Shown piece after piece: positions 1 through 15,192 of a stretch of DNA of 15,546 bases. The first letter of the stretch is position 1, and every line of letters begins with the position of its first letter. Below the pieces are notes generated by a model. It was given only the letters and a program-made list of their open reading frames with translations. It made no database searches and was not told where the DNA came from. Made by a program: the position numbers and the translations under genes. The DNA comes from a virus. Its lineage: Duplodnaviria > Heunggongvirae > Uroviricota > Caudoviricetes. The DNA lies in the IMG/VR virus record IMGVR_UViG_2541047895_000009, positions 1-15,546 of that record; one strand, given 5' to 3'.

Positions 1-662
<662 letters not shown>

Positions 663-2716: not shown

Positions 2717-3508
2717 TTACGCCAGTTGTACGGACACGAACTCATCAGGGTCAGCCAGCAGCATCAGCGGTGCTGACTGAATCATGGTGAACTCACGCGC
2801 CGGATCGCCGGTGGTCACCCAGTTTTTCGGGTAGCGGGCAGAGGCGTTAATGCCTTCGCGCTGTGCGTCCGCATCCTGAATGCAGCCATAGGTGCGCAGA
2901 CCGCGTGCCTGAGTGTTCCCCAGTACCATCGTGTTGTCCGGCAGGAAGTTCTTTTTGACGCCGTTTTCCACGTACTGTCCGGAATACACGACGATGGCCA
3001 CATCGCCATACATCCCCTTATAGGACACCGCTTTACCCAGGTCTTTTACCGCTGTCTCCAGCTCGGAATTAGAGCCGCGACGGGTATCCAGCTTCTCCCT
3101 GACAGCTTTGAAGGAACGGAACAGCGCCCAGCCTTTCGGATCAAACACGATGATATTCACCACACCGCTGGCATTCAGCGCGTAGGCTTCAATATCGTCG
3201 GTCGGGTCATACGTGGACTTGTCACGCTTGCTCCACTCCGTGCCGCCGGACTGTGTGATGTTGTTCGCCGCACTGCGGCCCATATCCACCTCAACCGGAT
3301 CGAAGGCTTCACCGGTCATGGTGTATTTGCCCCTGAGCACGGCAGAAACGGCCTGCATCTCTTCGACCTGAGCAATGGCCAGCTCTTCGTCTCGCATGTT
3401 CTGCAGGATGATGCGACGGCGGCGGTAAGCCGGGTCCGCCAGATTCTGTGGATCTTCATCCGGCAGGCGACGCAGAGTCATCTGCGGATTCACCTCATGC
3501 TTGGGTTA
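2717..3508 (-). pseudogene. E: major capsid protein E, C-terminal fragment (codons ~83-341), separated from its 5' part by the inserted element
   Basis: Translation (PKH)EVNPQMTLRRLPDEDPQ...DEFVSVQLA matches the lambda gpE C-terminal 259 residues. An in-frame TAA lies immediately upstream of the homology and there is no promoter-proximal start. Confidence 0.9.
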
Positions 3509-3512
3509 CATG
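3494..3512. other. left junction of inserted element (attL-like): ctcaTGCTTgggttacatg
   Basis: Lambda E homology runs to about 3502, then diverges. The sequence is an imperfect direct repeat of 14911-14930 (aagTGCTTcggcttgacata), sharing the TGCTT core. Confidence 0.6.
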
Positions 3513-3583
3513 AGTCAAATATGAAAGGATGTGAATGATTTTTAGTGATAATATGCTTCAGAATTACTTCCAAAACGAACCGT

Positions 3584-3604
3584 TGCAATACATCATGCAA
3601 TACA
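3584..3604 (+). repeat. tandem direct repeats TGCAATACA (2 copies), candidate arm-type integrase-binding sites on the attL side
   Basis: TGCAATACA at 3584-3592 and 3596-3604. The same motif recurs in the same orientation at 14766-14802 beside int. Confidence 0.4.
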
Positions 3605-3626
3605 CAGGATATGTAAGGAGTTATTA

Positions 3627-3812
3627 ATGACTAATTCAGTTGATGTTCAAACCCGTAGAGAAGAATTTGAGCAAGGATATCGAGATGGCTTTCGTTCGGT
3701 TCAGGGCAATGTTTTACCCCCAAAAGCTCCAAGAATTGTACTTGAAACGGGTTCAAAACCTTACGATCAAGGCCATGCTTACGGGGTCAGAGATGCTGGA
3801 GGCAAGCGGTAG
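3627..3812 (+). CDS. small hypothetical protein (61 aa), first gene of the AT-rich cargo operon
   Basis: ATG at 3627 preceded by AAGGAG at 6-nt spacing. The overlapping alternative ORF 3640-3834 has no ribosome-binding site. No recognisable domain. Confidence 0.4.
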   Translation: MTNSVDVQTRREEFEQGYRDGFRSVQGNVLPPKAPRIVLETGSKPYDQGHAYGVRDAGGKR

Positions 3813-3856
3813 CTATCACTGGTATAGTCCATAGAAAAAGTGTAAGGGGTCCTAAA

Positions 3857-4618
3857 ATGGATAATTTTCTCAATGAGTTTTCGTCGGATCAGGAACGAGC
3901 TAGACATTTAGAGAACTTATTAATTAAGGTTGCTCGAGGAGGACCTCGAGATAATAGTGAAAATTATATTTCTCTTAGATCGTACTTTATACAAAACTCT
4001 GTATTAAAACTGTTGCTTCCTGCATTCGTAAGAGAAAACAGAAGCCTAAAAAAATTTTGGGGATTCATACAGCAGAAGTTCCCAACATATAAAGAGCGCG
4101 AGTACTTCATCTCAACTGAATTCACACCGTTATTCGATTATTTCGAAGAGAATCATGCTACGCCTTCGGATGTTCACATAACTGACGGATTAAGAAGCTA
4201 TGATGAGTGTGGCGTGAATGAAGCTTGGGCAAAAGCTCTAGACAGAAGAAACAACGATCCTGAAGGGGCTATTACAGCATCTAGAACATTGCTTGAGACG
4301 GTTTGTAAACACATTCTTGATGATTTAAGTATTACTTATGATAGAAATCTAGACATGAGTGAACTTTATAAACTAACATCCAAAGCACTTAATTTGGCTC
4401 CAGATCAGCACGGAGAACAGATTTTTAAGCAGATACTTAAAGGTTGCTCATCTGTGGTAAATGGCCTTGGCAATTTACGTAATAAATATGGCGATGCTCA
4501 TGGCATAGGGAAAAAACCAATAAAACCTGCTGATCGACATGCTCTTTTAGCTGTTAATCTTGCAGGAAGCATGTCAGTTTTCCTCATTCAAACATGGCAA
4601 AACTTGTCAAACAAATAA
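3857..4618 (+). CDS. Abi_C-domain (abortive-infection C-terminal, HEPN-like) protein, 253 aa
   Basis: C-terminal motif block ...TASRTLLETVCKHILDDL...GCSSVVNGLGNLRNKYGDAHG...ADRHALLAVNLAGSMSVFL matches the Abi_C pattern, including an R-x6-H motif (RNKYGDAH). AAGGGG ribosome-binding site 7 nt before the ATG. Strongly AT-rich relative to flanking phage DNA. Confidence 0.75.
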   Translation: MDNFLNEFSSDQERARHLENLLIKVARGGPRDNSENYISLRSYFIQNSVLKLLLPAFVRENRSLKKFWGFIQQKFPTYKEREYFISTEFTPLFDYFEENHATPSDVHITDGLRSYDECGVNEAWAKALDRRNNDPEGAITASRTLLETVCKHILDDLSITYDRNLDMSELYKLTSKALNLAPDQHGEQIFKQILKGCSSVVNGLGNLRNKYGDAHGIGKKPIKPADRHALLAVNLAGSMSVFLIQTWQNLSNK

Positions 4619-4671
4619 TACCTAATTTTTAACCTCAACTGATTAAATTTCGGTCAAACATCCGTTAGTGA

Positions 4672-4712
4672 AATACAAGTTGCTATGTAAATACACACCT
4701 GCAACTTGTATT
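4672..4712. promoter_or_regulatory. perfect 12-bp inverted repeat aatacaagttgc-N17-gcaacttgtatt, about 54 nt downstream of the Abi_C gene
   Basis: Read directly from the sequence. No U-run follows on either strand, so it is not a canonical intrinsic terminator; an operator or RNA structure is possible. Confidence 0.45.
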
Positions 4713-5572
4713 ACCAACCAAGTTTAGCTCCCGATATTACTCATTTCCATTATTTTTCCTTGGCTAGCGCTTCGTCGAACATTTTTACGTGTTATCTTCA
4801 AGGTAGATGCTCGCAGAAATGATAGTACCACCGATTCGGCGTTGACCATAAGCCAGCAGAACAAGATCCCCTTGGCCGGTTGTATTCGTTACACCACCAA
4901 ATGCATAGAATGCCTTGTTATCAGTATCTTGCTTACTCGGCTACCCACAAGATTGTGGGGATAGCATTTGAGCAACGTAGCCTATCGTCACAGAAGCCCC
5001 TACTACAAACATCATATTACTGGACGCTATACGCGCTCCTGACATTCAGATAGACACAGCAACGCAAATCATTTGCAGCAGACCAGAGCTTTTACTTTCC
5101 ACAATAACTGGCACAAATACGAATTTCCCGACCCTCAGTAGAGAGCACAAGCGCATCTTTTCCAATATTCTGTTTCCTATGAAAAATACAGAATGTCAGC
5201 TCGCGAAATTTACTAGTATTCAGATACTTTTCTAATCGAACCTCTCAGTTTAATCGTCATCATTACCTTATAGCTCTGCATTTCGAGTTCCTACAGTAGA
5301 GTAAGTGTTCAGTAACCCAAGTTCAGGAGAAAGGAAACGATCATGCCATTTTCAGTCCCAAATAATGCTTTCCATTTCCTTTCTTTTCAGGTGGTGTTTT
5401 AAATAAAAACATAAAGTTACGGCGAAGAAGAACGGAAACGCCTTAAACCGGAAAATTTCCATAAATAGAGAAAAACTGCGCGCCTTCCGCCCCGTAACGC
5501 TCCGGATCACCGGAAAGGACCCGCTCAAAAAAAGCGGCCACTGACGTGATTGTTTATGTTCCATGAGCGACA

Positions 5573-5592
5573 AAACCGCCCGGAGGCGGTTT
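5573..5592 (-). terminator. putative intrinsic terminator after the I-like gene
   Basis: Stem aaaccgcc/ggcggttt with a 4-nt loop. On the minus strand the stem is followed by UUUUG, about 20 nt after the I-like stop. Confidence 0.4.
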
Positions 5593-5610
5593 CACATAAA
5601 ACATTCTGCA

Positions 5611-6258
5611 TCAGCGACCAATCACCACGATTTCACCACCATCACCTTCATCAGCTGTGCTGATCTCCTGAGATACCACACGTGACCCCACGCGCATTTC
5701 ACCGTACAGAACAGGCAGGACATTGCCCTGGGCAACCATGTTATCCAGTGACGAGAAATACGTGTTCTGCTTACCGTTATCCGTTGTCTGTGTACGGGGA
5801 GTTCTGGCTTTCGGTGCCAGCATCTGAGCCACACCGCCAAGGATCATACTGGCCCCCGCACTATACATTCCTGTAATTGCTGCCGCTCCTAGCCAACCAG
5901 CGGGGTTCCACCACGCCACCGCAATCAGCGCCGCCCCCAGCACGGTCTGAAACACACCGCCACTTTTAGCGCCAGCAAGACGCGGTACGATGTGGATCAC
6001 AGCACCATTCGCCAGCGGCTCATTAAGACGGGCTGATAATTCATTTTCGCCTGCATCCCGCCCGGCAATCCGTACCTGATACCAACCGTCGCTCAGTTTC
6101 TGACGAAACGACGGTAGCTGTGTGGACAGAGCTCGGATGGCTTCAGCCCCCGTTTTTACACGAAGGTCGATGCGGCGGCCGAATCGTTGCAAATCCCCGT
6201 AAAGGCAGATTCGTGCCATGCCCGATGACGCCAGAGGGAGTGTGTGCGTAGTTGCCAT
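5611..6258 (-). CDS. lambda gpI-like tail assembly protein (215 aa)
   Basis: N- and C-termini (MATTHTLPLASSGMARICLYGDLQRFGRRIDLRVKTGAEAIRAL... and ...KQNTYFSSLDNMVAQGNVLPVLYGEMRVGSRVVSQEISTADEGDGG) match lambda gpI as recalled, with a divergent central segment. It is not followed by a J gene but by a hairpin and ORF-free DNA. Confidence 0.8.
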   Translation of the reverse strand: MATTHTLPLASSGMARICLYGDLQRFGRRIDLRVKTGAEAIRALSTQLPSFRQKLSDGWYQVRIAGRDAGENELSARLNEPLANGAVIHIVPRLAGAKSGGVFQTVLGAALIAVAWWNPAGWLGAAAITGMYSAGASMILGGVAQMLAPKARTPRTQTTDNGKQNTYFSSLDNMVAQGNVLPVLYGEMRVGSRVVSQEISTADEGDGGEIVVIGR

Positions 6259-6298
6259 TTGTCGGTATACCTCTCTCGTTTGCTCTGTTGTTCAGAAA

Positions 6299-6682
6299 TT
6301 AGCAGATCAACTTATAGCGTCCCTTCCGAGCATTGCGGCGTACACGTTCAATCTTGAGGCATAGCGCCGCATCTGGCTTTTTTGGGACTGGTACACGGCA
6401 ATATTCAGAAGCGCGAGGAATATTATTTATCCAGTCAATCACTTCGCTTAAATACCAGGCCTTACGCCCTTCCGTAACCTGCACACGCTCCGGGAACTCT
6501 CCACGGGCCTCAAGGTTTAGCAGTGTACGACGACTCAGGGTTGTAAGTTCCATCACCTGATTCATATCAACAAGACGCTCGCTTAAACGCATTTTGTCAG
6601 CGATAGCTTTTAATTCCTCTACAGCTGGATTTGGGTACATAATTTCGGCAATTGGCTTAAGGTCATTGTAATGATTCTGCAT
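6299..6682 (-). CDS. AlpA-family (MerR/Xis-type helix-turn-helix) DNA-binding protein with an N-terminal extension, 127 aa
   Basis: Core ...MELTTLSRRTLLNLEARGEFPERVQVTEGRKAWYLSEVIDWI fits the AlpA pattern. AAGGGGGA ribosome-binding site 5 nt before the ATG at 6680-6682. Confidence 0.6.
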   Translation of the reverse strand: MQNHYNDLKPIAEIMYPNPAVEELKAIADKMRLSERLVDMNQVMELTTLSRRTLLNLEARGEFPERVQVTEGRKAWYLSEVIDWINNIPRASEYCRVPVPKKPDAALCLKIERVRRNARKGRYKLIC

Positions 6683-6693
6683 TGTATCCCCCT

Positions 6694-7035
6694 TTACACA
6701 CGAGCCAGCGGCTGAACAGAAATACCTGAGCCAACAAACGCTGCAACCTTTACTGACAGTTCTTTTACAGACTCAGGCCAGTTCAGAGCATCAACATTTA
6801 AGACACCTGTCTTATAGACCTGAGCCTGTGTTTTTTTCGCGGTGTCGATTTGTACAGCGGATACATAAACCGCTTTACCTACGCTCGTACCATCCCATAC
6901 CACCAGTGCACCTGTTGCATCTTCCTGCATCAGTGGCGTAAATGCAGGAATTACCCCTTTATTAGCTGAAAATATCCCCAGCGTAGTAACCAGTGCTTCA
7001 GTGCCAGCCATGAGTTCAGTGTAATGAGTAGCCAT
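6694..7035 (-). CDS. gpD-like head decoration protein (113 aa), divergent from prophage D
   Basis: ALVVWDGTSVGKAVYVSAV...YKTGVLNVDALNWP aligns with the lambda gpD motif [19 protein letters not shown]...[23 protein letters not shown] ribosome-binding site; translationally adjacent to the E-like gene. Confidence 0.75.
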   Translation of the reverse strand: MATHYTELMAGTEALVTTLGIFSANKGVIPAFTPLMQEDATGALVVWDGTSVGKAVYVSAVQIDTAKKTQAQVYKTGVLNVDALNWPESVKELSVKVAAFVGSGISVQPLARV

Positions 7036-7044
7036 TGCTCCCCC

Positions 7045-8085
7045 TTAGCCAATGCGAACGGTAACAAAACGATTGATGCGGGCCGGTATTGGCTGTGGTG
7101 CTGAATGTGTCTGCACATATTCAATAGCCGGATCACCAGGCACAATATAGTTTTTCGGTGCAAGTTCGGCTTTAGTCAGCCCCATTCGGATTAGCTCCGG
7201 ATCCTGAATACCGCCATAGGCGACAATCCCCTGAAGAGCCGTATTGCCAAGCACCATCAAATCAGGATCAAGGAAATGTTTTTCAGTTCCGTCCTCGTCG
7301 GTATAACGCCCGCTGTAAACAACAATCGCAACATCGCCCATATACCCTTTAAAACTCACCGAATCACCAAGGTCTTTAAGGGCCGTTTCCAGTTCGGAAT
7401 TAGAACCACGACGGGTATCCAGAGCCTCTTTTATCGCTCTGAATGAACGGTATTTCTTCCATACATTACCGCCCATAATGATGATATTAGTGACGCCCTC
7501 ACTAAATTCTGCGTAGTTCTCAATATCATCATTTGGATCAAAAGTTTCTTTATCCTTACCTGACCACTCAGCACCGCCAGACTGAGTGATGATATTTTGT
7601 GGTTTAATATTCCAGTCCAGCTCATAACGTTCAATACCATCGCCCTCAATGATATTTTTCCCCGTTGTGATTGCCTGAACGGCAAGCCATTCAATACGTG
7701 CACGAATAGCTTTAGCTTGATTTACAATCGCCTGTTTAACTTTAATATTACGCGCCCCAAAAGCATTGTATTGCTCAGGTGATACACCAGCAGGGCGCAC
7801 AGCTAACTTATTTGGATCAATGCTGCTTTTCGGCTTCATATAGCCTGGACGAATTGTTTTTGATTCGTACCCTTCGTCACGTGAAACTTTACTACCCACC
7901 ATAGGAGAACAAAACGCTGCAATTGGGATATTTGGATCGTCGATTGTATCAAGAATAATATCGCGCGATTCAAACATTACCGAGCGAGTAAAAAACAAAC
8001 GGGTAAACAACGCATTTAGTTGTTTTTGTACATCTACAGCATTAACCACCTGTACAAGCTGGGTAGGCGAATATAAATCAACCAT
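7045..8085 (-). CDS. lambda E-like major capsid protein (347 aa), divergent second copy encoded within the inserted element
   Basis: Clear homology along its length to lambda gpE (GYMKPK vs GYVKPK; ITQSGGAEWSGKDKETFDPNDDIENYA vs ITQSGGTEWSKRDKSTYDPTDDIEAYA; LDTRRGSNSELETALKDLG...GDVAIVVYSG). Start taken at the ATG at 8083-8085, 6 nt after AAAGAGG; the 404-aa track ORF is an upstream extension. AT-richer than the prophage E. Confidence 0.85.
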   Translation of the reverse strand: MVDLYSPTQLVQVVNAVDVQKQLNALFTRLFFTRSVMFESRDIILDTIDDPNIPIAAFCSPMVGSKVSRDEGYESKTIRPGYMKPKSSIDPNKLAVRPAGVSPEQYNAFGARNIKVKQAIVNQAKAIRARIEWLAVQAITTGKNIIEGDGIERYELDWNIKPQNIITQSGGAEWSGKDKETFDPNDDIENYAEFSEGVTNIIIMGGNVWKKYRSFRAIKEALDTRRGSNSELETALKDLGDSVSFKGYMGDVAIVVYSGRYTDEDGTEKHFLDPDLMVLGNTALQGIVAYGGIQDPELIRMGLTKAELAPKNYIVPGDPAIEYVQTHSAPQPIPARINRFVTVRIG

Positions 8086-8259
8086 ACGCATCCTCTTTGC
8101 ATTCATTAAAAATAATTGTGGATATATGCTATCACCGATATTTGTCATGCGAATACATGCAACCGAGTGCAATGTTGTATAAAGTTTTGGGATGACAACT
8201 TCAGCGCGGATAATTAGTGTTAATATCTTCACTCCCTTTGGTCGGGATTTATGTAGCAT

Positions 8260-8294
8260 GCCGGAAAATTTATTTTTTTCCGGCCTTTTTTATT
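8260..8294 (+). terminator. GC-stem hairpin plus T-run (gccggaaaa-N7-ttttccggc CTTTTTTATT), terminator-like on the plus strand
   Basis: Read from sequence between ssb and the E-like gene. The U-run follows the stem only on the plus strand, so it would stop antisense or convergent transcription rather than ssb read-through. Confidence 0.35.
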
Positions 8295-8302
8295 GGCAAT
8301 AT

Positions 8303-8752
8303 TTAAAACGGAATATCATCTCCCCATTGCTCATTATCTCCCACTGGTGGATGGCTTCCTTGCTGATCTGCCTGTTGTTTTGCTCTGTTCAGTGCGTCAG
8401 TAGCCTGCCCCTGTTGGCCTTTTTTGCCGCCCGGTCGCACCGTTCGCGCACTGATTACGCTGTCTGCGATAACCTGCCAGCCCTGCCGCGTTTCACCGTT
8501 CTGTCCAGTCCACTGACTCACCTGCATGTTACCCGCCACGCTCAGGAGTTCGCCTTTGTGATGCTTTGCCAGCGCGTCGGCTTGTCTGCCAAACGCCAGA
8601 ACAGATAACCACATCGTCGCCTGACCGTCATCCGATTGGCTGCAGGGCAGTGATACCGCCATACGCGCCAGCGTCATGGGGGTGCCCTTGCTGGTCTGTT
8701 TTGTCTGCGGGGCGTCCACCAGCCGCCCGTAAGCTGCTATTTGCGCCGTCAT
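8303..8752 (-). CDS. ssb: single-stranded DNA-binding protein (SSB)
   Basis: 149 aa. OB-fold-like N-terminal region, Gly/Gln-rich linker and the hallmark acidic C-terminal tail ...WGDDIPF. ATGA overlap with the upstream ORF. Confidence 0.85.
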   Translation of the reverse strand: MTAQIAAYGRLVDAPQTKQTSKGTPMTLARMAVSLPCSQSDDGQATMWLSVLAFGRQADALAKHHKGELLSVAGNMQVSQWTGQNGETRQGWQVIADSVISARTVRPGGKKGQQGQATDALNRAKQQADQQGSHPPVGDNEQWGDDIPF

Positions 8753-9006
8753 GCTGCCTGCTCTCCGGACTTAATATTGATGGTTGTCACTTCCTCCGCT
8801 TCGGCAATCTCCCGTTCGGTCAGCGTGGCAAAGTTTGCAGCCGCCGTTGTCATGAATGCGCTTATCAGTTCGGGATGTGCTTTCGCGTATCCTTCCCCGG
8901 CGTTGCGGTCTATTGCCTTAATCGCCACCCTTAGCCAGTGTTCAGCCATATCAAGGGCGCGGTAATGTGGCTTTATATGTTTGTTCAGTTTTCCTGATGT
9001 GTGCAT
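8749..9006 (-). CDS. hypothetical protein (85 aa), between origin and ssb
   Basis: ORF translationally coupled to ssb (ATGA overlap). No recognisable motif. Confidence 0.45.
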   Translation of the reverse strand: MHTSGKLNKHIKPHYRALDMAEHWLRVAIKAIDRNAGEGYAKAHPELISAFMTTAAANFATLTEREIAEAEEVTTINIKSGEQAA

Positions 9007-9051
9007 TTTTATTTTTACCCCCTCGTTTAAAAAGTTTTTTGTGCACCACCA

Positions 9052-9283
9052 CCTTGTCTACCTTGTCTACCTGATTAGTTATCAGGCCAGTAATGGCGCG
9101 GGTTTCAGGGAGGTAGACAGCCCCAAATAGCTGTCTACCTCATCTCTACCCGTCTCCTTACCTGTCTACAAAAATGGGTAGATAAGGTAGATAACAGGTA
9201 GACAGTGAAAAATAGTTATCTACCTGCATTAATACATTGAAATAAAAGTATTTTCTTTCAGTCAGGTAGACAAGGTAGATAAC
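9052..9283. repeat. iteron array, putative replication origin: at least 11 copies of GGTAGA(C/T)A / T(G/A)TCTACC in both orientations
   Basis: Copies include cttgtctacc x2 (9053-9071), gaggtagacag, gctgtctacc, cctgtctaca, gggtagataaggtagataacaggtagacag, ttatctacc and caggtagacaaggtagataacc. Lies immediately downstream of the primase gene in an AT-rich non-coding gap. Confidence 0.7.
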
Positions 9284-9295
9284 CATTGCCATTTT

Positions 9296-11047
9296 TTATA
9301 AAAACGCATCGCAATCATCAGTAGTCGTTGCGTTGGTCTGCGTGACTCCCTTAACTTTTCGCGTAATATATTCATATCCGTAAACTTTCGCCGCTGACCT
9401 CATAGCCTTTCCGAACTCATTCACGCTCAAACATTTCCCCTTTCCTGTGTATGCCATGAAGGCCATATAGACACGGTAAAGGCTGTTTCTGGTCGTGTAC
9501 TTCACGGAGTCACCACCACCGCCCATCATTAGCCCACGAGCTTCCTCCAGAAACTCAAGCGCCGCGCAAAGCTCAACAACTGGATCCGTTTGCTGCTTTA
9601 TTGCCAGAGCTTCATCACCGTCACGCTGTTCCAGTAGTAAAGCCCTTGCCTTTTCAGGGTCAGCAAAGTTAGCCAGCAAGCGGCGGATAATTACGGGGAT
9701 TTCTGCCGCTATCTTTTCCGGTAATTCCTTGTCTTTTTCGTCCTCCCTTACAATGTTGTCGAACCGGAAAATCACCCGACGGCGTGACACACCTCCGGCC
9801 CGTTCGGTAAAGATCATCGGGTCGTTATTGGTTGCCAGTACCACCGCCCTTATTATCGTCGTGAATCGCTTCTCATATTTCGGATTGATTTCAACGGGAT
9901 CGCCTCCCGTGATTTTCTTGATGCCCGTGCCTTCCCCCGTATATTTCGGCTGATCGGCAAGGACGATAAGACGACTCCCGACAACCTGCGCGCGCCCTCC
10001 TGCATCATCGAGTGATGTCATCTCTGCGCTTACGGTGTTCTGTTTGCCTGCAAGCAGGGTGGCAATATGGGTAAATGTACTCTTACCGCTTCCCCCGTCT
10101 CCGGTGGCCTCAATGAACATCTGCCAGTCGTAGCGGTTCGCCATAATCATGTATAACGCGGCACATATACGCATCATCTTGCGCGGGTCTTTTCCTGCAG
10201 CATGTTCAAGCCATTTATGGAAATTTGGCGCATTATCGCGGATGTTTTCCCCTGCTACTGGTGGCGTGTACTCAATACCATTGTGCGTGGTGCTCCAGTG
10301 CTCCGGCGAGTGCGGAGAAAATTCCCCCGTTTTCAGATTAAGCACACCATTAGTGAACGGTAGCAAATCACCGGACGGCTCCCCCATGGGGGCGGCAATA
10401 ACTTTTAACGCTTCCACGGCGTTATTGATTACGCGTTTGCTGAACGTGGCCCTGTGCTCTGAATAGATCGCCACCATTTCGCGGCTCAGCTCCATTGTGC
10501 TGACCGGACACCATACCCCGCCGCGCCATACGTGGACGATTTCACTTTCTGCATGAACACAAACACCATCAAAGCGATCGGCAAGTAGTTGTGCCCGCTC
10601 ACTGTCTGCCATCTGTGAAAGTTGCGCCTTTTGCTTCGTCGGAAGATTAAGCACCAGGCTTTCCCCACGCTCGCATTCCTCTTTGAGTCGCGGCAACTGG
10701 TCGGATAAATCCACAGGGCTGGTGTCAGTAATCCCCGCGTATTCGTGTACGGTCTTCACTCCAGCCACAGCCAGTAACGTAACAATCTGCGTCATGCTGT
10801 GCTCTGTGATATGTCCTGCGCGGTAAACACGCACACACTGACGATCTTCATCAATGATCCGGTAATCGGTGATGTTTTTCAGTTGCTCATCAGCCAGCAC
10901 GACAGGCGGCACATCGTCGGCGGCAATATGTTTACCCGCCCATTCCTGCCACTCTTTCGCATGGCTCCACGCATCACTACCTGCAAAGATGATTACCTCT
11001 GTCAGTCTGTCGCGTGGCTGTTTTTTTAAGTTCGGTGCCAGTTTCAT
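9296..11047 (-). CDS. P4-alpha-type primase/replicase (D5-N / phage-plasmid primase C-terminal family), 583 aa
   Basis: Walker A P-loop EATGDGGSGKSTF plus the typical satellite/PICI primase-helicase layout. ATGA overlap with the upstream 99-aa ORF. Confidence 0.88.
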   Translation of the reverse strand: MKLAPNLKKQPRDRLTEVIIFAGSDAWSHAKEWQEWAGKHIAADDVPPVVLADEQLKNITDYRIIDEDRQCVRVYRAGHITEHSMTQIVTLLAVAGVKTVHEYAGITDTSPVDLSDQLPRLKEECERGESLVLNLPTKQKAQLSQMADSERAQLLADRFDGVCVHAESEIVHVWRGGVWCPVSTMELSREMVAIYSEHRATFSKRVINNAVEALKVIAAPMGEPSGDLLPFTNGVLNLKTGEFSPHSPEHWSTTHNGIEYTPPVAGENIRDNAPNFHKWLEHAAGKDPRKMMRICAALYMIMANRYDWQMFIEATGDGGSGKSTFTHIATLLAGKQNTVSAEMTSLDDAGGRAQVVGSRLIVLADQPKYTGEGTGIKKITGGDPVEINPKYEKRFTTIIRAVVLATNNDPMIFTERAGGVSRRRVIFRFDNIVREDEKDKELPEKIAAEIPVIIRRLLANFADPEKARALLLEQRDGDEALAIKQQTDPVVELCAALEFLEEARGLMMGGGGDSVKYTTRNSLYRVYMAFMAYTGKGKCLSVNEFGKAMRSAAKVYGYEYITRKVKGVTQTNATTTDDCDAFL

Positions 11048-11343
11048 TTTTTGCCCCTGAATGCGTTAATCATGCTTTTCATTTTCTGGATGTTTCCCCG
11101 CGCTTTTTCCCTGCTGGTGGGCTTACTGCGGGGTGCGGCATATACCAGGGAAAAATCACGCCGGAACTGATAAACAGGCATCACGCAGTCATAGCTATAC
11201 CCCTCACGGCGGTAAGTGATGCGCCGTTCTGCCACGCCTTTAATCGTTACCGTGCCGCCGTATTTATCGCGGTAAATATCGCCGTTCATAAATTCAGGCC
11301 GAGCGGGGCCGCTGGCAATAAAGCCAGAATTTTTCATTTCCAT
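11044..11343 (-). CDS. hypothetical protein (99 aa), translationally coupled to the primase
   Basis: ORF with ATG at 11341-11343; its stop overlaps the primase start. No motif recognised. Confidence 0.55.
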   Translation of the reverse strand: MEMKNSGFIASGPARPEFMNGDIYRDKYGGTVTIKGVAERRITYRREGYSYDCVMPVYQFRRDFSLVYAAPRSKPTSREKARGNIQKMKSMINAFRGKK

Positions 11344-11360
11344 ATTATTTATTCTTCGAC

Positions 11361-11582
11361 TTAACTCGACTTATTTGATAGCAGGGCACTATTTATTGCG
11401 TCATTGAGTTTTTCTGCTGCTTCATCAATAAGTGACAACAGGCCATAAGCAATATTTGCATCTTCATTGTCATTTATGCAATCAAGCCACATATTTAATA
11501 TTGCTTTTGCTGAATTATTTAAAGTTAATGAACTCTCTGCACATGCTAACAATTTAAAAAAGACTTCTCGTTCTGTATTCAT
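11361..11582 (-). CDS. hypothetical small protein (73 aa), AT-rich
   Basis: ORF in a tightly packed same-strand array upstream of the primase. Confidence 0.45.
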   Translation of the reverse strand: MNTEREVFFKLLACAESSLTLNNSAKAILNMWLDCINDNEDANIAYGLLSLIDEAAEKLNDAINSALLSNKSS

Positions 11583-11774
11583 TTAATCCCCCACCAGCTT
11601 ACTTTCTTCCTCAATCAGGAAACTAGCGACACTTCCCGAAAGGCGCGCCAGTAGGCTCGCCAGCGCGGATATATCAGCATCTGTAATTTTGTTCGGGTAT
11701 ACCTCAAGAAGGCGGCAAATAATCTCTGTTTGGTGCGCACGTTCAGCGGCTTCGTGTAATGTGATTTCCTGCAT
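11583..11774 (-). CDS. hypothetical small protein (63 aa)
   Basis: ORF abutting neighbours with start/stop overlaps, suggesting an operon. Confidence 0.45.
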   Translation of the reverse strand: MQEITLHEAAERAHQTEIICRLLEVYPNKITDADISALASLLARLSGSVASFLIEEESKLVGD

Positions 11775-11959
11775 TAATGCACCTCTTTTAATTCATACAC
11801 TGCTGAAATAATGACTTGTGATAAGCCATATTCTGATGATTCGCTTCTCACCGCAGCAATAGCCGTCTGAACATTAACAGCCTTCACGTTCTGAGCGATA
11901 CCAATTGTGTGGCCTCGTGGGTTAACAGCTCGGGCAAATACACGGAAGGTTTTAAGCAC
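11774..11959 (-). CDS. hypothetical small protein (61 aa), GTG start
   Basis: GTG at 11957-11959 preceded by AGGAGG at about 6-nt spacing. Overlaps the stop of the upstream ORF. Confidence 0.45.
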   Translation of the reverse strand: MLKTFRVFARAVNPRGHTIGIAQNVKAVNVQTAIAAVRSESSEYGLSQVIISAVYELKEVH

Positions 11960-12155
11960 GGCGCACCTCCTGACGAATACGGGCAGCGAATACCATCACG
12001 CAGCCAGTTGGGGATTGCTGGCGGGCTTCCTGTTCGCTGATGGCCTCGATGGTAATCACGCGCGGTTGTGCCGTACTCAAGGCGATAAAACGCCAGATGT
12101 ATTTATTCAGGTTGTGCGAGTTCCGCCCTTGCGGGTGTGTGGTATGATTTCTCAT
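11952..12155 (-). CDS. hypothetical small protein (67 aa), first gene of the leftward regulatory operon
   Basis: ATG at 12153-12155 preceded by GAGGT. The longer track ORF (to 12215) would run through the upstream inverted-repeat region. Confidence 0.45.
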   Translation of the reverse strand: MRNHTTHPQGRNSHNLNKYIWRFIALSTAQPRVITIEAISEQEARQQSPTGCVMVFAARIRQEVRRA

Positions 12156-12190
12156 AGCTACCTCGATACTGTTGCTATCGTTGGTGGTTA

Positions 12191-12292
12191 AACGCCCTGT
12201 ATGTGTTGCGAGCACTGCAGGGCGTTGTTCCAGAGCAATAAAACATGATAAGGTGTGTACCTATCAAGAAGCATACTAAGCAATAGGTACAT
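12191..12292. promoter_or_regulatory. divergent promoter/operator region with two inverted repeats
   Basis: AACGCCCTG-N18-CAGGGCGTT (12191-12226) and GTGTACCTAT-N18-ATAGGTACAT (12255-12292), located between the divergently oriented small-ORF operon and the RHH gene. Confidence 0.4.
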
Positions 12293-12294
12293 AC

Positions 12295-12489
12295 ATGTCA
12301 ACTATCATTCAGCGCGATAAACAGCCGAAAGGTGCTGGTAAGGCACCGGCATTTCAGATCCGTATCAACCCGGAACTAAAAGAACAAATGGTTAGTGCGG
12401 CTGCAAAAGAAGGAATGAGTTTGGCTAATTGGCTTAAAGAACTAGCAAGAGCAGAACTACGCAAACAAGGTATTGAACCTAGAGGTTAA
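12295..12489 (+). CDS. Arc/ribbon-helix-helix-type small DNA-binding protein (64 aa), candidate repressor or antitoxin
   Basis: KAPAFQIRINPELKEQMVSAAAKEGMSLANWLKELARAELRK fits the RHH beta-strand plus two helices pattern. No obvious Shine-Dalgarno; the second inverted repeat abuts its start. Confidence 0.6.
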   Translation: MSTIIQRDKQPKGAGKAPAFQIRINPELKEQMVSAAAKEGMSLANWLKELARAELRKQGIEPRG

Positions 12490-12513
12490 GACTTTTAAAA
12501 GGATCTGTGAGAG

Positions 12514-13239
12514 ATGCAAAATCTAAAACGAATAAGTGAATATAATTTAACAGACAATCCTATCCCACATTATTTCCCTCATGATAGTAGATTCCTGTCT
12601 CTACTTGGGAAATTTTCGTTCCGACTTGAAGATCTAATAGTATTTCACTCATTTGTTTATCATACATATAACATAAATCTTAAGGAGATACAAAAAATTG
12701 CAGATAACACTCCCCAATATAATCCAGACTTATTAGACGATGAAGAGCATGAAATGGCCTTGATTTCTCAAGCCAGACATAGAGAGAGGGTTGGTTATTA
12801 TGATGATCTTAATAGAAAAGCCTCATTTTTTGCCAATGACAGTGTCGTAATTAATCTTTGGGCTATTATTGAACAGTTTAGTACCATGGCATACTCTTTG
12901 CTAGAAGCAATTATTAAAGAAATACCTGAAAATCAAGTTAAAGTTCCATATACATGGGATAAATTAAAAAAGAAATACTTAAGTTATGGTATTGACCTCT
13001 CCCAACTTGATTCTTACGATGTCATTAACGAAACTAGGGTTTTAAACAACAAAATCAAACACCTTTATATTGTCGATGAAAACCTTGCCTCTTTTCCTTT
13101 TTTCAAGGACAAAGAGAACAAGTCATTATTAGGAATGGAATATAGGCTTCAAGATTATGTTATTGGAACTCATAAGTTCATCGGGCATCTTTTAGAGGAT
13201 TGCTCCATAAAATTAGGAAATAAGGCAAACATGATTTAA
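12514..13239 (+). CDS. hypothetical protein (241 aa), very AT-rich cargo gene downstream of the RHH gene
   Basis: Long uninterrupted ORF 24 nt after the RHH gene. No motif I can assign with confidence. Confidence 0.65.
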   Translation: MQNLKRISEYNLTDNPIPHYFPHDSRFLSLLGKFSFRLEDLIVFHSFVYHTYNINLKEIQKIADNTPQYNPDLLDDEEHEMALISQARHRERVGYYDDLNRKASFFANDSVVINLWAIIEQFSTMAYSLLEAIIKEIPENQVKVPYTWDKLKKKYLSYGIDLSQLDSYDVINETRVLNNKIKHLYIVDENLASFPFFKDKENKSLLGMEYRLQDYVIGTHKFIGHLLEDCSIKLGNKANMI

Positions 13240-13243
13240 ATTA

Positions 13244-13270
13244 ATTAGGTAGGTAATAAACCTACCTAAT
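13244..13270. terminator. perfect 10-bp inverted repeat attaggtagg-taataaa-cctacctaat between convergent genes
   Basis: Read from sequence; sits between the 241-aa gene (+) and alpA (-). AT-rich flanks on both sides, so possibly a bidirectional terminator. Confidence 0.45.
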
Positions 13271-13279
13271 TGAAATGAT

Positions 13280-13513
13280 TTACTTATTTAAGTACCATTC
13301 CCCACGAATCCACGCCTGCACCTCCGAAAGGCGATATGCTACGGCAGTGGCACCTATTTTAATTCGCTTTGGAAACTTTCCTTCTTTCTCTAACTTCCAT
13401 CGAGTGCTATTAGCAAGAGTAGTTAACTCACGGCATTCTTTCTCACGGATCATTCGGTCAATGTTAGGAATGTATTCCAGACCCTTTTTATCAACAATTG
13501 CCATTTTTTTCAT
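13280..13513 (-). CDS. alpA: AlpA-family excisionase/transcriptional regulator (77 aa)
   Basis: ...CRELTTLANSTRWKLEKEGKFPKRIKIGATAVAYRLSEVQAWI fits the AlpA helix-turn-helix pattern. Immediately downstream of int on the same strand. Confidence 0.8.
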   Translation of the reverse strand: MKKMAIVDKKGLEYIPNIDRMIREKECRELTTLANSTRWKLEKEGKFPKRIKIGATAVAYRLSEVQAWIRGEWYLNK

Positions 13514-13514
13514 G

Positions 13515-14750
13515 TTAACCAGCCTTTTGTTTGAGGATTGTCACTTTTGAATCAGCAGCTGCGATGCTATTGAGATATGTAGTCCAGAGTTCCAGAGCAT
13601 CCAGTTTTTTAGCCATAAACTTACTCCGGTTGTAAACACCTGCCACGCCAGGTAGCGCATGGCCTAACAGTTGTTCTACTACATAAAATTCAACACCGAG
13701 ATCACTTAGATGAGTAGATAGCGTTCTTCTAAGGTCGTGTAGTGACCATTGTTTTTCATGGCCCAAACGTTTACCGATTTTCCCCCCAATCTTGCTTACG
13801 CTTTCTCTAATTCGCAGACTTCCCAGCACATAACCAGTATGTTTTGTCTCTTCGTGAACATCCGTTACCCACTGTCGTAGAATTTCAGGTACTGGTCTGA
13901 CGATTTCAACACCAGTTTTTGAGTGATCTTTTGGTACAGTCCAAACCCAACTTTCGAGATCCCATTCGCTCCATTCTGATAATCGGGCTTCACTCATTCG
14001 ACATCCAAATACTGTACAAAGCACAAACATTTTTCGCGTGTATTCAGACATTAGTTTTAAATCAGGCTCGACAAAAATTGCCTTCCAGAGCTGGCCGAGT
14101 TCGGCTTCATCCAGAACCCGATCCCGCTTACCTGCAATCTGCCCCACATCACTCATGCGCAAATCCTTTAAAGCATCACACGTCGCGTACTGGCGTACCC
14201 GACAAAAACGAAGAGCTAATTTAGTGTCAGAAAAAACATACGCCGCCATAACTGGTGCATTACTTTTAATTCGGTCAAAACAGTCCAGCCATTCATATAG
14301 GTGAGTGTCATTTACGGGCAAATGACCGATATAGGGAAAGATATGCTTTCGAAATCTGCCAAGCGTTACAGCATGAGTTTTACGACGCACCTTACAGTAA
14401 TTTTCATACCAGTAATTTAGTGCATCCTCCACTGTGACCGGCTTTAAGCGTTCTTCAGCCTGAATCTTAATCTGGATACGCGGATCACGTTTGTCAGCCA
14501 ACCAAGCACGGCACTCGTCGCGCTTTTCCCTTGCCTGTTTGAGTGACATATCAGGATATTTACCCAACGTTAGCCAGACCGGAGCAGCCCGGCCACCTGC
14601 TAACCTGTAGAAGAAAACAAAGCTCACAGCCCCCTTGGTACTCACACGAATAGAAAGCCCCTTTCCATCAGCAATGGTGATCTGCTTTTCTCTGGGTTTC
14701 CCCAGATATCCTTTAAGTGCTTTGTCGCTCAGTTTGTTCTCGCCAGCCAT
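13515..14750 (-). CDS. int: P4-type tyrosine integrase (411 aa)
   Basis: N-terminal arm-binding-type domain (LSDKALKGYLGKP...ADGKGLSIRVSTKGAVSFVFFYRLAGG...WLTLGKYPDMSLKQAREKRDE) and a catalytic domain with R...HDLRRT...LLGH...Y. Start taken at the ATG at 14748-14750; the 455-aa track ORF is an upstream extension. Ends about 160 bp inside the right junction. Confidence 0.9.
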   Translation of the reverse strand: MAGENKLSDKALKGYLGKPREKQITIADGKGLSIRVSTKGAVSFVFFYRLAGGRAAPVWLTLGKYPDMSLKQAREKRDECRAWLADKRDPRIQIKIQAEERLKPVTVEDALNYWYENYCKVRRKTHAVTLGRFRKHIFPYIGHLPVNDTHLYEWLDCFDRIKSNAPVMAAYVFSDTKLALRFCRVRQYATCDALKDLRMSDVGQIAGKRDRVLDEAELGQLWKAIFVEPDLKLMSEYTRKMFVLCTVFGCRMSEARLSEWSEWDLESWVWTVPKDHSKTGVEIVRPVPEILRQWVTDVHEETKHTGYVLGSLRIRESVSKIGGKIGKRLGHEKQWSLHDLRRTLSTHLSDLGVEFYVVEQLLGHALPGVAGVYNRSKFMAKKLDALELWTTYLNSIAAADSKVTILKQKAG

Positions 14751-14765
14751 TTTTAGCCCCAAAAA

Positions 14766-14802
14766 GCAATACAAGCTGCAATACAGAGATGATTGCAACA
14801 CA
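14766..14802 (+). repeat. direct repeats GCAATACA x2 plus variant TGCAACACA in the int upstream region, candidate arm-type Int sites
   Basis: gcaataca at 14766-14773, tgcaataca at 14777-14785, tgcaacaca at 14794-14802; same motif and orientation as 3584-3604 at the other end. Confidence 0.4.
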
Positions 14803-14882
14803 CAGATAACGAGGAAAATCCAGTGAAAGCGCCAGATAAACTTATTCTTTATTATCAAAAGATTAAGTGTAAAAACCAGCAA

Positions 14883-15158
14883 CTACACGAAAGCCTCAGA
14901 AAGCCATGCTAAGTGCTTCGGCTTGACATATCCCGGCGTAAATTCAGAGGTGGAGCCGCCACGGGAGCGGATAACCTCACCGGAAACAATCGGCGAAACG
15001 TACAGCGCCATGTTTACCAGCCCCGGAATTTGTGAGAGATAGACTTTCTCCGTGGTGAAGGGATAGCTCTCACGGAAAAAGAGACGCAGAAACAGCGGAT
15101 CAAACTTAAATTTCTGCTCATTTGCCGCCAGCAGCTGGGCGGTTGTGTACATCGACAT
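14883..15158 (-). pseudogene. E: major capsid protein E, N-terminal fragment (codons 1-82) fused to 9 element-derived codons and a stop
   Basis: MSMYTTAQLLAANEQKFKFDPLFLRL...SEFTPGYVKPKH matches the lambda gpE N-terminus, then LAWLSEAFV and stop from element DNA. Confidence 0.9.
14905..14930. other. right junction of inserted element (attR-like): gctaagTGCTTcggcttgacata
   Basis: Lambda E homology begins at about 14914. Imperfect direct repeat of 3494-3512 sharing the TGCTT core. Confidence 0.6.
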
Positions 15159-15171
15159 AAAAAAATCCCGT

Positions 15172-15192
15172 AAAAAAAGCCGCAAAGGCGGC
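15172..15192 (-). terminator. D-E intercistronic hairpin (gccgc-ctttg-cggc) followed by a U7 run on the transcribed strand
   Basis: On the minus strand the RNA reads GCCGCCUUUGCGGC UUUUUUU ACGGGAUUUUUUU AUG. Attenuator/terminator-like structure between D and E. Confidence 0.4.

Follow-up and report, generated by a model that had tools for sequence, protein, structure and literature searches.

The DNA analyzed here, referred to as the window, is a stretch of 15,546 nucleotides from an effector-carrying lambdoid prophage of Escherichia coli, of which it represents the late region. Two open reading frames lie next to each other on its + strand, at the positions that an earlier sequence-only reading had given: a small gene encoding 61 aa (3627–3812) and an Abi_C/HEPN gene encoding 253 aa (3857–4618). 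The strand is shared, the gap between the genes is 44 nt, and each of them has a strong ribosome binding site (RBS), namely AAGGAG at 3615–3620, ending 6 nt 5' of the ATG of the 61-aa ORF and already pointed out in that reading, and AAGGGG at 3844–3849, ending 7 nt 5' of the ATG of the 253-aa ORF. The GC content is 45.7% in the small ORF and 37.4% in the large one, whereas the prophage flank has 57% and the core of the satellite 48%, in line with the earlier description of the pair as more AT-rich than its flank.

With regard to transcription signals, a scan of positions 3480–5700 with a simple consensus test revealed no sigma-70-like promoter for either gene, the counts being below the shuffle expectation, and the same region yielded no terminator for the pair; expression of both genes is thus a prediction. 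A perfect 11-bp hairpin is present at 4673–4711 on the + strand, 55 nt past the stop codon of the Abi_C gene (z −3.2); it has no U tract and is possibly a transcript end or a stabilizing element. The Abi_C gene is oriented against the late genes of the satellite and of the helper, so that late read-through from the helper would be antisense to it; as a speculation, such read-through might limit autoimmunity while the satellite mobilizes. Within the window, positions 3500–4720 are 100% identical to the E. coli strain RM14723. No near-identical DNA was found in the phage and plasmid collections, and no papers were retrieved by the RefSeq protein accessions.

Both genes belong to an element of about 11.4 kb that splits the prophage's major capsid gene, E. 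The N-terminal fragment of gene E (14883–15185, − strand) ends with ...KPKH and covers positions 1–78 of Pfam Phage_cap_E, while the C-terminal fragment (2717 to ~3507, − strand) begins with PKHEVNPQ and covers positions 94–328. The left att core, ATGCTTGGG (3497–3505), overlaps the PKH codons of the split gene, and the right att core, GTGCTTCGG (14913–14921), adjoins the integrase gene; the P-K-H codons are therefore imperfectly duplicated at the two junctions. The integrase gene (13515–14882, − strand) forms one end of the element, with AlpA (13280–13513, − strand) beside it. The rest of the element encodes a small RHH protein and a 241-aa protein, an Icd-like protein, DUF4222, a D5_N primase and SSB, together with E-like capsid and decoration genes of its own and a second AlpA-like regulator. 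The genes for integrase, AlpA, primase, SSB, capsid and decoration proteins all share the − strand with the late genes of the prophage. Helper-embedded PICIs of the site E:Phage_cap_E:80 are recognized by an integrase-AlpA module, a primase and a late zone that are inserted, in the same orientation, into codon ~80 of the capsid gene E of a lambdoid prophage, and the element belongs to this class. For this site, 201 instances have been described, along with 2,642 PICIs at fis; besides the fis gene, related integrases use 14 sites that lie in late genes of prophages (PMC10111431). We found the alpA-decoration-capsid module in 365 of 5,426 complete E. coli genomes, and relatives of the element are also inserted in a prophage portal gene and near clpS. 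The element in the window has a cos site and lacks terS.

A second pair of genes in the element deserves mention in its own right. The RHH gene and the gene for the 241-aa protein (12295–13239) are conserved as a pair in helper-embedded PICIs of Citrobacter and Yersinia; the 241-aa protein has a 77%-identical homologue in Raoultella and matches no known family. As a two-gene candidate, this pair is better than the one formed by the 61-aa and Abi_C genes.

The window was compared by blastn with four sibling satellites integrated at the same capsid site (L089, L090, L095 and L096). The conserved satellite att arm (3506–3553) is common to the siblings, with the similarity ending at 3541–3553; 43 E. 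coli genomes match 3500–3541/3553. Two direct GCAATACA repeats follow on the + strand (3585–3592 and 3597–3604), whose position is kept in the siblings while the surrounding sequence differs, as checked in the junctions of the window and of L089, L096, L110, L109 and L123; they are probably arm-type integrase binding sites. Similarity to the siblings restarts only at 5375–5524, and then again from 6306. The segment 5375–5524 is a lambda-type cos site (− strand) common to all four siblings; it shows 89% identity to the sequence immediately upstream of nohD/Nu1 in a prophage of O157:H7, has matches in 3,662 genomes and forms the inner boundary of a variable cargo slot that extends from 3554 to 5374.

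In the window, the 61-aa and Abi_C genes lie in this slot, followed by 756 nt that appear to be non-coding, whereas the content of the slot in the siblings consists of a DUF2971 gene plus a Nu1-like terS (L089 and L090), a 'restriction endonuclease' (L095) or a 936-bp hypothetical gene (L096). Since unrelated cargo thus lies between the conserved flanks of related elements, the slot is a defence hotspot of the PICI/satellite type, which bears out the placement of the pair at the variable end of a satellite, namely the non-integrase end, directly after the att arm. In PICIs, immune systems have been reported at the 5' or the 3' end (PMC11364771).

The 756 nt that follow the Abi_C gene were considered as a non-coding RNA or as extra cargo and rejected as such: positions 4791–5153 (− strand) are occupied by a pseudogene, similar to lambda tail assembly protein I, that has decayed (tblastn E-value 6e-13, 31% identity, in-frame stops), and other records have genes annotated as 'tail assembly protein' that match this segment as well. 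Beyond the cos site, 5525–6305 is an extra captured block with an intact tail-assembly-I gene and a K fragment, which fits the 'late gene capture' described for these elements (PMC10111431). In many related PICIs, an intact tail-I-like gene is convergent with Abi_C.

The presence of this pseudogene next to the Abi_C gene bears on the question of whether the locus is functional at all. The surrounding prophage is degraded, being disrupted by IS3 and having no intact capsid gene, so that the locus may be a relic, in which a composite of prophage and satellite is decaying and the Abi_C gene is a silent, unexpressed cargo. The lack of a promoter- or terminator-like site for the pair and the frameshifts in both integrase and primase of the RM14723 copy are consistent with such decay. 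Nevertheless, the Abi_C ORF is intact and 99.8–100% identical in four E. coli genomes and E. albertii, both ribosome binding sites are strong, the integrase and primase ORFs are uninterrupted in the window, and the promoter scan was, as stated above, a simple consensus test. We therefore regard a silent relic as very unlikely.

The 253-aa protein (WP_001358138.1) is labelled in RefSeq as an 'abortive infection family protein'. Its residues 169–244 match Pfam Abi_C (PF14355) over positions 2–82 of the 83 of the profile, with 83 bits and an E-value of 1.7e-23; the score is well above the curated gathering threshold of 24 bits by which Pfam defines membership, and so the clear C-terminal Abi_C signature that had been claimed stands. 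The AbiJ model of PADLOC (PDLC02347) matches residues 129–245 (E-value 2.4e-22; profile positions 160–275 of 281), and PHROG 23253, annotated as 'unknown function', covers the full 253 aa (E-value 1.4e-91). The Abi_C match lies inside a HEPN domain that spans approximately residues 118–252 (4208–4615, + strand). Within it, the catalytic HEPN motif R208-N-K-Y-G-D-A-H215 (4478–4501, + strand) corresponds to GLGNLRNKYGDAHG, with R208 encoded by nt 4478–4480 and H215 by nt 4499–4501. It conforms to the R-x4-6-H motif of the HEPN superfamily (R-polar-x3-5-H, here R208-N-KYGDA-H215), and its spacer of five residues is the commonest among Abi_C proteins (PMC13590631). In an alignment of 30 homologues, R208, N209, G212, D213 and H215 were invariant, so that the R-x6-H motif of the sequence-only reading is both present and conserved in its key residues. 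The predicted model shows the four-helix up-down HEPN fold at approximately residues 118–251, with low confidence around the catalytic helix (pLDDT 46–59 for residues 181–220). Taken together, the 253-aa protein belongs to the Abi_C and HEPN families.

The remainder of the protein is an all-helical N-terminal domain of approximately residues 1–115 (3857–4201, + strand) that is conserved throughout the family and has no assignable family of its own; no Pfam model, including those of AbiJ_NTD, matched the N-terminal 129 residues at an E-value of up to 10. The earlier statement that the N-terminal part carries no recognizable motif thus holds with regard to its substance, although not to its extent, as it concerns about 45% of the protein rather than two-thirds. 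In the same 30-homologue alignment, the invariant residues of this domain include D11, R41, F44, P55, R62, F67, W68, Y78 and R81. Presumably, it is a sensor or regulatory domain. Homology searches gave 4,416 matches and showed that the family is conserved over its full length of about 250 aa; the best 120 of these matches are 234–281 aa long, at least 53% identical and from many phyla. Both halves of the protein are under purifying selection (pN 0.10–0.13 vs. pS 0.73–0.85), with the N-terminal half evolving approximately twofold faster than the C-terminal half.

As for the 61-aa gene, a 69%-identical copy was found at another locus, L002. Comparison of both copies gave a dN/dS of about 0.15 and 14, 11 and 33 differences at the three codon positions, and the similarity begins at the ribosome binding site and stops just before the stop codon. 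Judged from this pattern of substitutions, the 61-aa ORF is a real coding gene under purifying selection, to which no function could be assigned. Its family is tiny: in a set of 5.8 billion proteins, the close relatives form just three clusters, and when 1.84 billion representatives were scanned exhaustively with HMMER, only 12 remote, weak ones appeared. Its members have a bipartite motif, G-Y-x-D-G-F-R-S ... G-S-K-P-Y. Searches with the 61-aa protein in Pfam (including hits with E-values of up to 10), PHROG, NCBIfam, PADLOC and PDB sequences retrieved no match, which agrees with the earlier remark that the small partner has no recognizable motif. The L002 copy is preceded by a umuC-like gene and an ORF for an 87-aa membrane protein and is followed by a convergent gene for a 336-aa protein; no Abi_C gene is located near it.

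The sequence-only reading had taken the order of the two genes as an antitoxin-like arrangement. Stated in full, the two genes would form a toxin-antitoxin or abortive-infection operon, in which the HEPN RNase is neutralized or regulated by the 61-aa protein until the latter is displaced or broken down during infection. The common strand, the 44-nt gap, the strong ribosome binding site of each gene and the coding nature of the small one are all compatible with an operon. Many HEPN toxins do have partners (PMC3710099). Furthermore, the pair co-occurs in every copy of the element, that is, in four E. coli genomes, E. albertii and one IMG/VR contig. However, the co-occurrence is confined to this one element. 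A tblastn search for 61-aa homologues in 80 genomic loci that encode Abi_C relatives was negative, and among 48 IMG/VR viral loci with Abi_C relatives the small gene was present only in L097, which is the identical element; hence it accompanies Abi_C in one of 128 loci and is absent from 47 of the 48 viral ones. Clustering of all flanking ORFs in the 80 genomic loci did not reveal any neighbor conserved beyond a single genus. Instead, the neighbors across the family range from restriction-modification operons to housekeeping genes and include mutL/miaA, acetyl-CoA synthetase, purine synthesis genes, type I HsdR and MmeI enzymes.

The siblings tell the same story. At the capsid-gene site, about 14 sibling satellites have an Abi_C allele with 57% identity to that of the window; it begins 60–70 nt past the GCAATACA repeats, directly after the att arm, which leaves no room for the small ORF. 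In complete E. coli genomes, this allele was found in 41 and the one of the window in 4. Likewise, PICIs integrated at fis hold Abi_C alleles of 55–82% identity at the equivalent position. The type II arrangement, in which a cognate small partner is conserved beside the toxin, was not found in the 80 genomic and 48 viral loci, and neither the 61-aa protein nor the products of neighboring genes contain the nucleotidyltransferase domain that characterizes HEPN-MNT systems. In addition, the two genes differ in GC content (45.7% vs. 37.4%), no antitoxin-like domain was detected in the 61-aa protein, and no Abi_C gene accompanies its diverged copy. Finally, each of the characterized relatives SadR, AbiJ and Taranis works as a single gene and is tolerated in this form (PMC13590631; bioRxiv 10.1101/2024.07.02.601686). 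Given the rarity of the small gene, its lack of co-occurrence with Abi_C and the siblings that do without it, the antitoxin reading has no comparative support, and we consider the operon improbable.

Two further lines were followed on the same question. The type III systems AbiV, AbiF and ToxIN have a tandem-repeat RNA antitoxin. Such an antitoxin was rejected for the locus, as TRF identified no array in 3400–6300 except for a 2.2-copy, 10-nt chance match, there was no Rfam match, and the flanks are not conserved with the orthologue from Lonsdalea, to which nucleotide similarity is restricted to the Abi_C ORF. The solo gene of Lonsdalea was also considered as proof of a stand-alone chromosomal insertion; this argument loses force because PICIs also integrate at fis (PMC10111431), and the Lonsdalea copy may be a satellite remnant.

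We therefore view the 61-aa gene as an unrelated accessory gene that landed between the att arm and Abi_C in the lineage of the window, and not as a dedicated antitoxin. There is only a slim chance that its product modulates the Abi_C allele of the window in a lineage-specific manner, for instance as an anti-autoimmunity factor. If that were true, the factor would let a helper-embedded satellite retain a HEPN suicide RNase while needing its lambdoid helper, and the pair would be a new kind of protein-regulated Abi_C system.

The recurrent position of the Abi_C gene raises a different possibility. In both fis-type and capsid-gene PICIs, Abi_C is recurrently the first gene inside att, often facing a convergent tail-assembly-I-like gene, and this suggests a connection to the biology of the satellite. 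The HEPN protein could then serve the element itself through interference or addiction, either by cutting transcripts of the helper or of competitors or by killing cells that lose the element, and interference of satellites with their helpers is a known phenomenon (PMC10111431, PMC11364771). On the other hand, the family is widespread outside satellites, in many phyla and beside restriction-modification and housekeeping genes, as fits a generic defence gene; moreover, the sibling slots hold unrelated defence-like genes, and the characterized relatives defend against unrelated phages and plasmids. A role of this kind in the service of the satellite is thus unlikely, even if somewhat less so than the other alternatives discussed here.

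The reading that we favor, and consider probable, is that the 253-aa gene encodes an anti-phage defence of the Abi_C branch of HEPN ribonucleases (AbiJ/SadR/Taranis) which consists of one polypeptide, acts on its own and is carried as exchangeable PICI cargo. Its closest match by description is SadR of Staphylococcus aureus (Kondo et al., Nat Commun 2026, PMC13590631), also a single polypeptide (266 vs. 253 aa) with a C-terminal Abi_C/HEPN domain and a near-identical motif, RNEYGDAH as compared to RNKYGDAH in the window protein. Neither has a recognized N-terminal domain, SadR having been compared by its published description. Both genes adjoin an integration hotspot of a mobile element, although sadR lies beside rlmH/SCCmec in a host of a different phylum and the gene of the window is located on a phage satellite. 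AbiJ of Lactococcus lactis (Abi-859), the founder of Pfam Abi_C and the namesake of the AbiJ HEPN family (Anantharaman et al. 2013, PMC3710099), is likewise a single-gene system in which a variable N-terminal domain precedes the HEPN domain. However, only the C-terminal part of the window protein aligns with AbiJ, and since the N-terminal domain differs, it is not a full-length member of that family. In Taranis of Vibrio cholerae (bioRxiv 10.1101/2024.07.02.601686), Abi_C is also the exchangeable cargo of a mobile platform, which is a superintegron cassette and not the end slot of a PICI; its N-terminus is said to resemble AbiJ_NTD5, a domain that was not detected in the window protein. More distant is HepS, a HEPN defence of the Gifsy-1 prophage by which the J tail tip of lambda is sensed (PDB 9oik), with which similarity is at the level of the fold only.

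Several published observations shape the mechanism that we propose for this stand-alone defence. The variable N-terminal domains of the AbiJ family have been proposed to sense phage components and restrain the HEPN toxin (PMC3710099). SadR alone protects against phages and plasmids, degrades single-stranded RNA with Mg2+, loses both RNase activity and defence in the R225A, N226A and H232A variants and migrates as a probable dimer; in one phage that escaped SadR, the single-strand annealing protein was mutated (PMC13590631). Escape mutants of lactococcal AbiJ also map to single-strand annealing proteins (PMC13064643). On the basis of these findings on SadR, AbiJ and the family analyzed by Anantharaman et al., we propose that the 253-aa protein is a self-contained sensor and effector. 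By analogy with the family analysis of 2013, the helical N-terminal domain (approximately residues 1–115) would hold the HEPN domain inactive until infection. Once freed, the HEPN domain might cleave single-stranded RNA via R208, N209 and H215, probably as a dimer as suggested by SadR, and this cleavage would stop protein synthesis of the phage and possibly that of the host. Because escape from both AbiJ and SadR involves the single-strand annealing protein, a phage recombination protein of this type is the most likely candidate for the trigger. RNase activity, trigger and autoinhibition of the 253-aa protein are thus modelled on its relatives.

With regard to the element, the closest precedent is that of the 11capE helper-embedded PICIs (Tommasini, Mageeney and Williams 2023, PMC10111431), which occupy the same site in the lambdoid capsid gene E. 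The zones follow each other in the same order, with integrase-AlpA, a dynamic zone, primase/SSB and a late zone; in both cases the late zone contains a capsid homologue and captured late genes of the helper, and the cos site is common to the helper. Defence cargo is not described for 11capE in that study, whereas in the window an Abi_C gene occupies the far end of the late zone and lies in a variable slot; both are additions to that description. Abi_C systems have been reported in Klebsiella PICIs, as cited in the work on Taranis (bioRxiv 10.1101/2024.07.02.601686).

Abi_C defences, their presence on PICIs, hotspots at PICI ends and helper-embedded PICIs are therefore already published, and the 253-aa gene is an ordinary further example of a known single-gene type and not a new toxin-antitoxin pair. 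What is added here is modest: a variable slot between att and cos is documented in the E:Phage_cap_E:80 class, a strongly conserved Abi_C subfamily of about 250 aa is found to recur as the first gene of that slot, and evidence is provided against the 61-aa ORF as a partner of Abi_C. This removes a false lead, in that a small ORF upstream of such a gene is not to be assumed to be an antitoxin. The locus is also one more case of exchangeable anti-phage genes at the ends of satellites, now with the slot shown for the helper-embedded class of PICIs. The PHROG 23253 subfamily, which recurs as the first gene inside att of both capsid-gene and fis-integrated PICIs, represents an easily cloned target for the search for triggers of Abi_C RNases in enterobacteria.

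The element (window 3497-14921), which splits the capsid gene E of the prophage at around codon 80, is a helper-embedded PICI, a class that has already been published (PMC10111431). In relatives, the same satellite core was found elsewhere, namely in a prophage portal gene (loci L091 and L092) and near clpS (locus L093). The prophage tail tube gene was broken by an IS3-family transposase (window 1-654; locus L001).

On the plus strand of the satellite (window 12295-13239), a gene for a 64-aa RHH protein, with weak matches to HicB, YlcI-YnfO and Arc-like proteins, was followed after 24 nt by a gene for a 241-aa protein with a GC content of 32%. This latter protein gave no matches in Pfam, PHROG, NCBIfam or PADLOC. 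Citrobacter and Yersinia have helper-embedded PICIs that carry the pair too (46-80% identity), where, as here, it was situated with Icd-like genes on one side and AlpA-integrase on the other, and a homologue of the 241-aa protein with 77% identity was present in Raoultella; homologue clusters numbered only 10. Both genes form a conserved two-gene module.

Directly downstream of the primase gene, we found the repeat AGGTAGACAG...CTGTCTACCT in two copies (window 9111-9140 and 9196-9225), together with a further repeat, GGTAGAYAAGGTAGATAAC, at 9177-9195 and 9265-9283. These repeats (9111-9283) are probably the iterons of the satellite replication origin. Both the integrase and the primase were frameshifted in the satellite copy of E. 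coli RM14723, while the ORFs of the window were uninterrupted.

A lambda-type cos site (window 5375-5524) showed 89% identity to the DNA that directly precedes nohD/Nu1 in prophages of O157. This segment was matched in 3,662 E. coli genomes. No terS was present in the window satellite; a Nu1-like terS stands beside cos in the sibling satellites L089 and L090. Between cos and AlpA, a 781-nt insertion (window 5525-6305, minus strand) carried an intact lambda I gene together with a fragment of K, and was apparently captured recently. Beside it lay a decayed tail-assembly-protein-I-like pseudogene (4791-5153, minus strand). In many fis-type and capsid-gene PICIs from IMG/VR, an intact I-like gene was convergent with the Abi_C gene.

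With regard to the cargo, a perfect 11-bp hairpin, ATACAAGTTGC...GCAACTTGTAT (window 4673-4711; folding z-score of -3.2), lay 55 nt past the Abi_C stop codon and was devoid of a U tract. The 61-aa protein encoded upstream (window 3627-3812) and its relatives (P0134-P0144), a handful of proteins of around 60 aa as well as tandem units within secreted, Cys-containing proteins, shared the bipartite motif F-x-x-G-Y-x-D-G-[FW]-[RK]-S-[VI]-x-G ... G-S-x-P-[YF]-x-x-G-x-x-x-G, which is an undescribed mini-domain. In two Methylotenera loci (L014 and L028), an Abi_C-family gene was placed in the order mutL / Abi_C-family gene / miaA; since its ORF overlaps the ends of both neighbours by a few bases, it appears to be part of a housekeeping operon.

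At least some strains probably carry the prophage-satellite composite in a decaying, immobile state.
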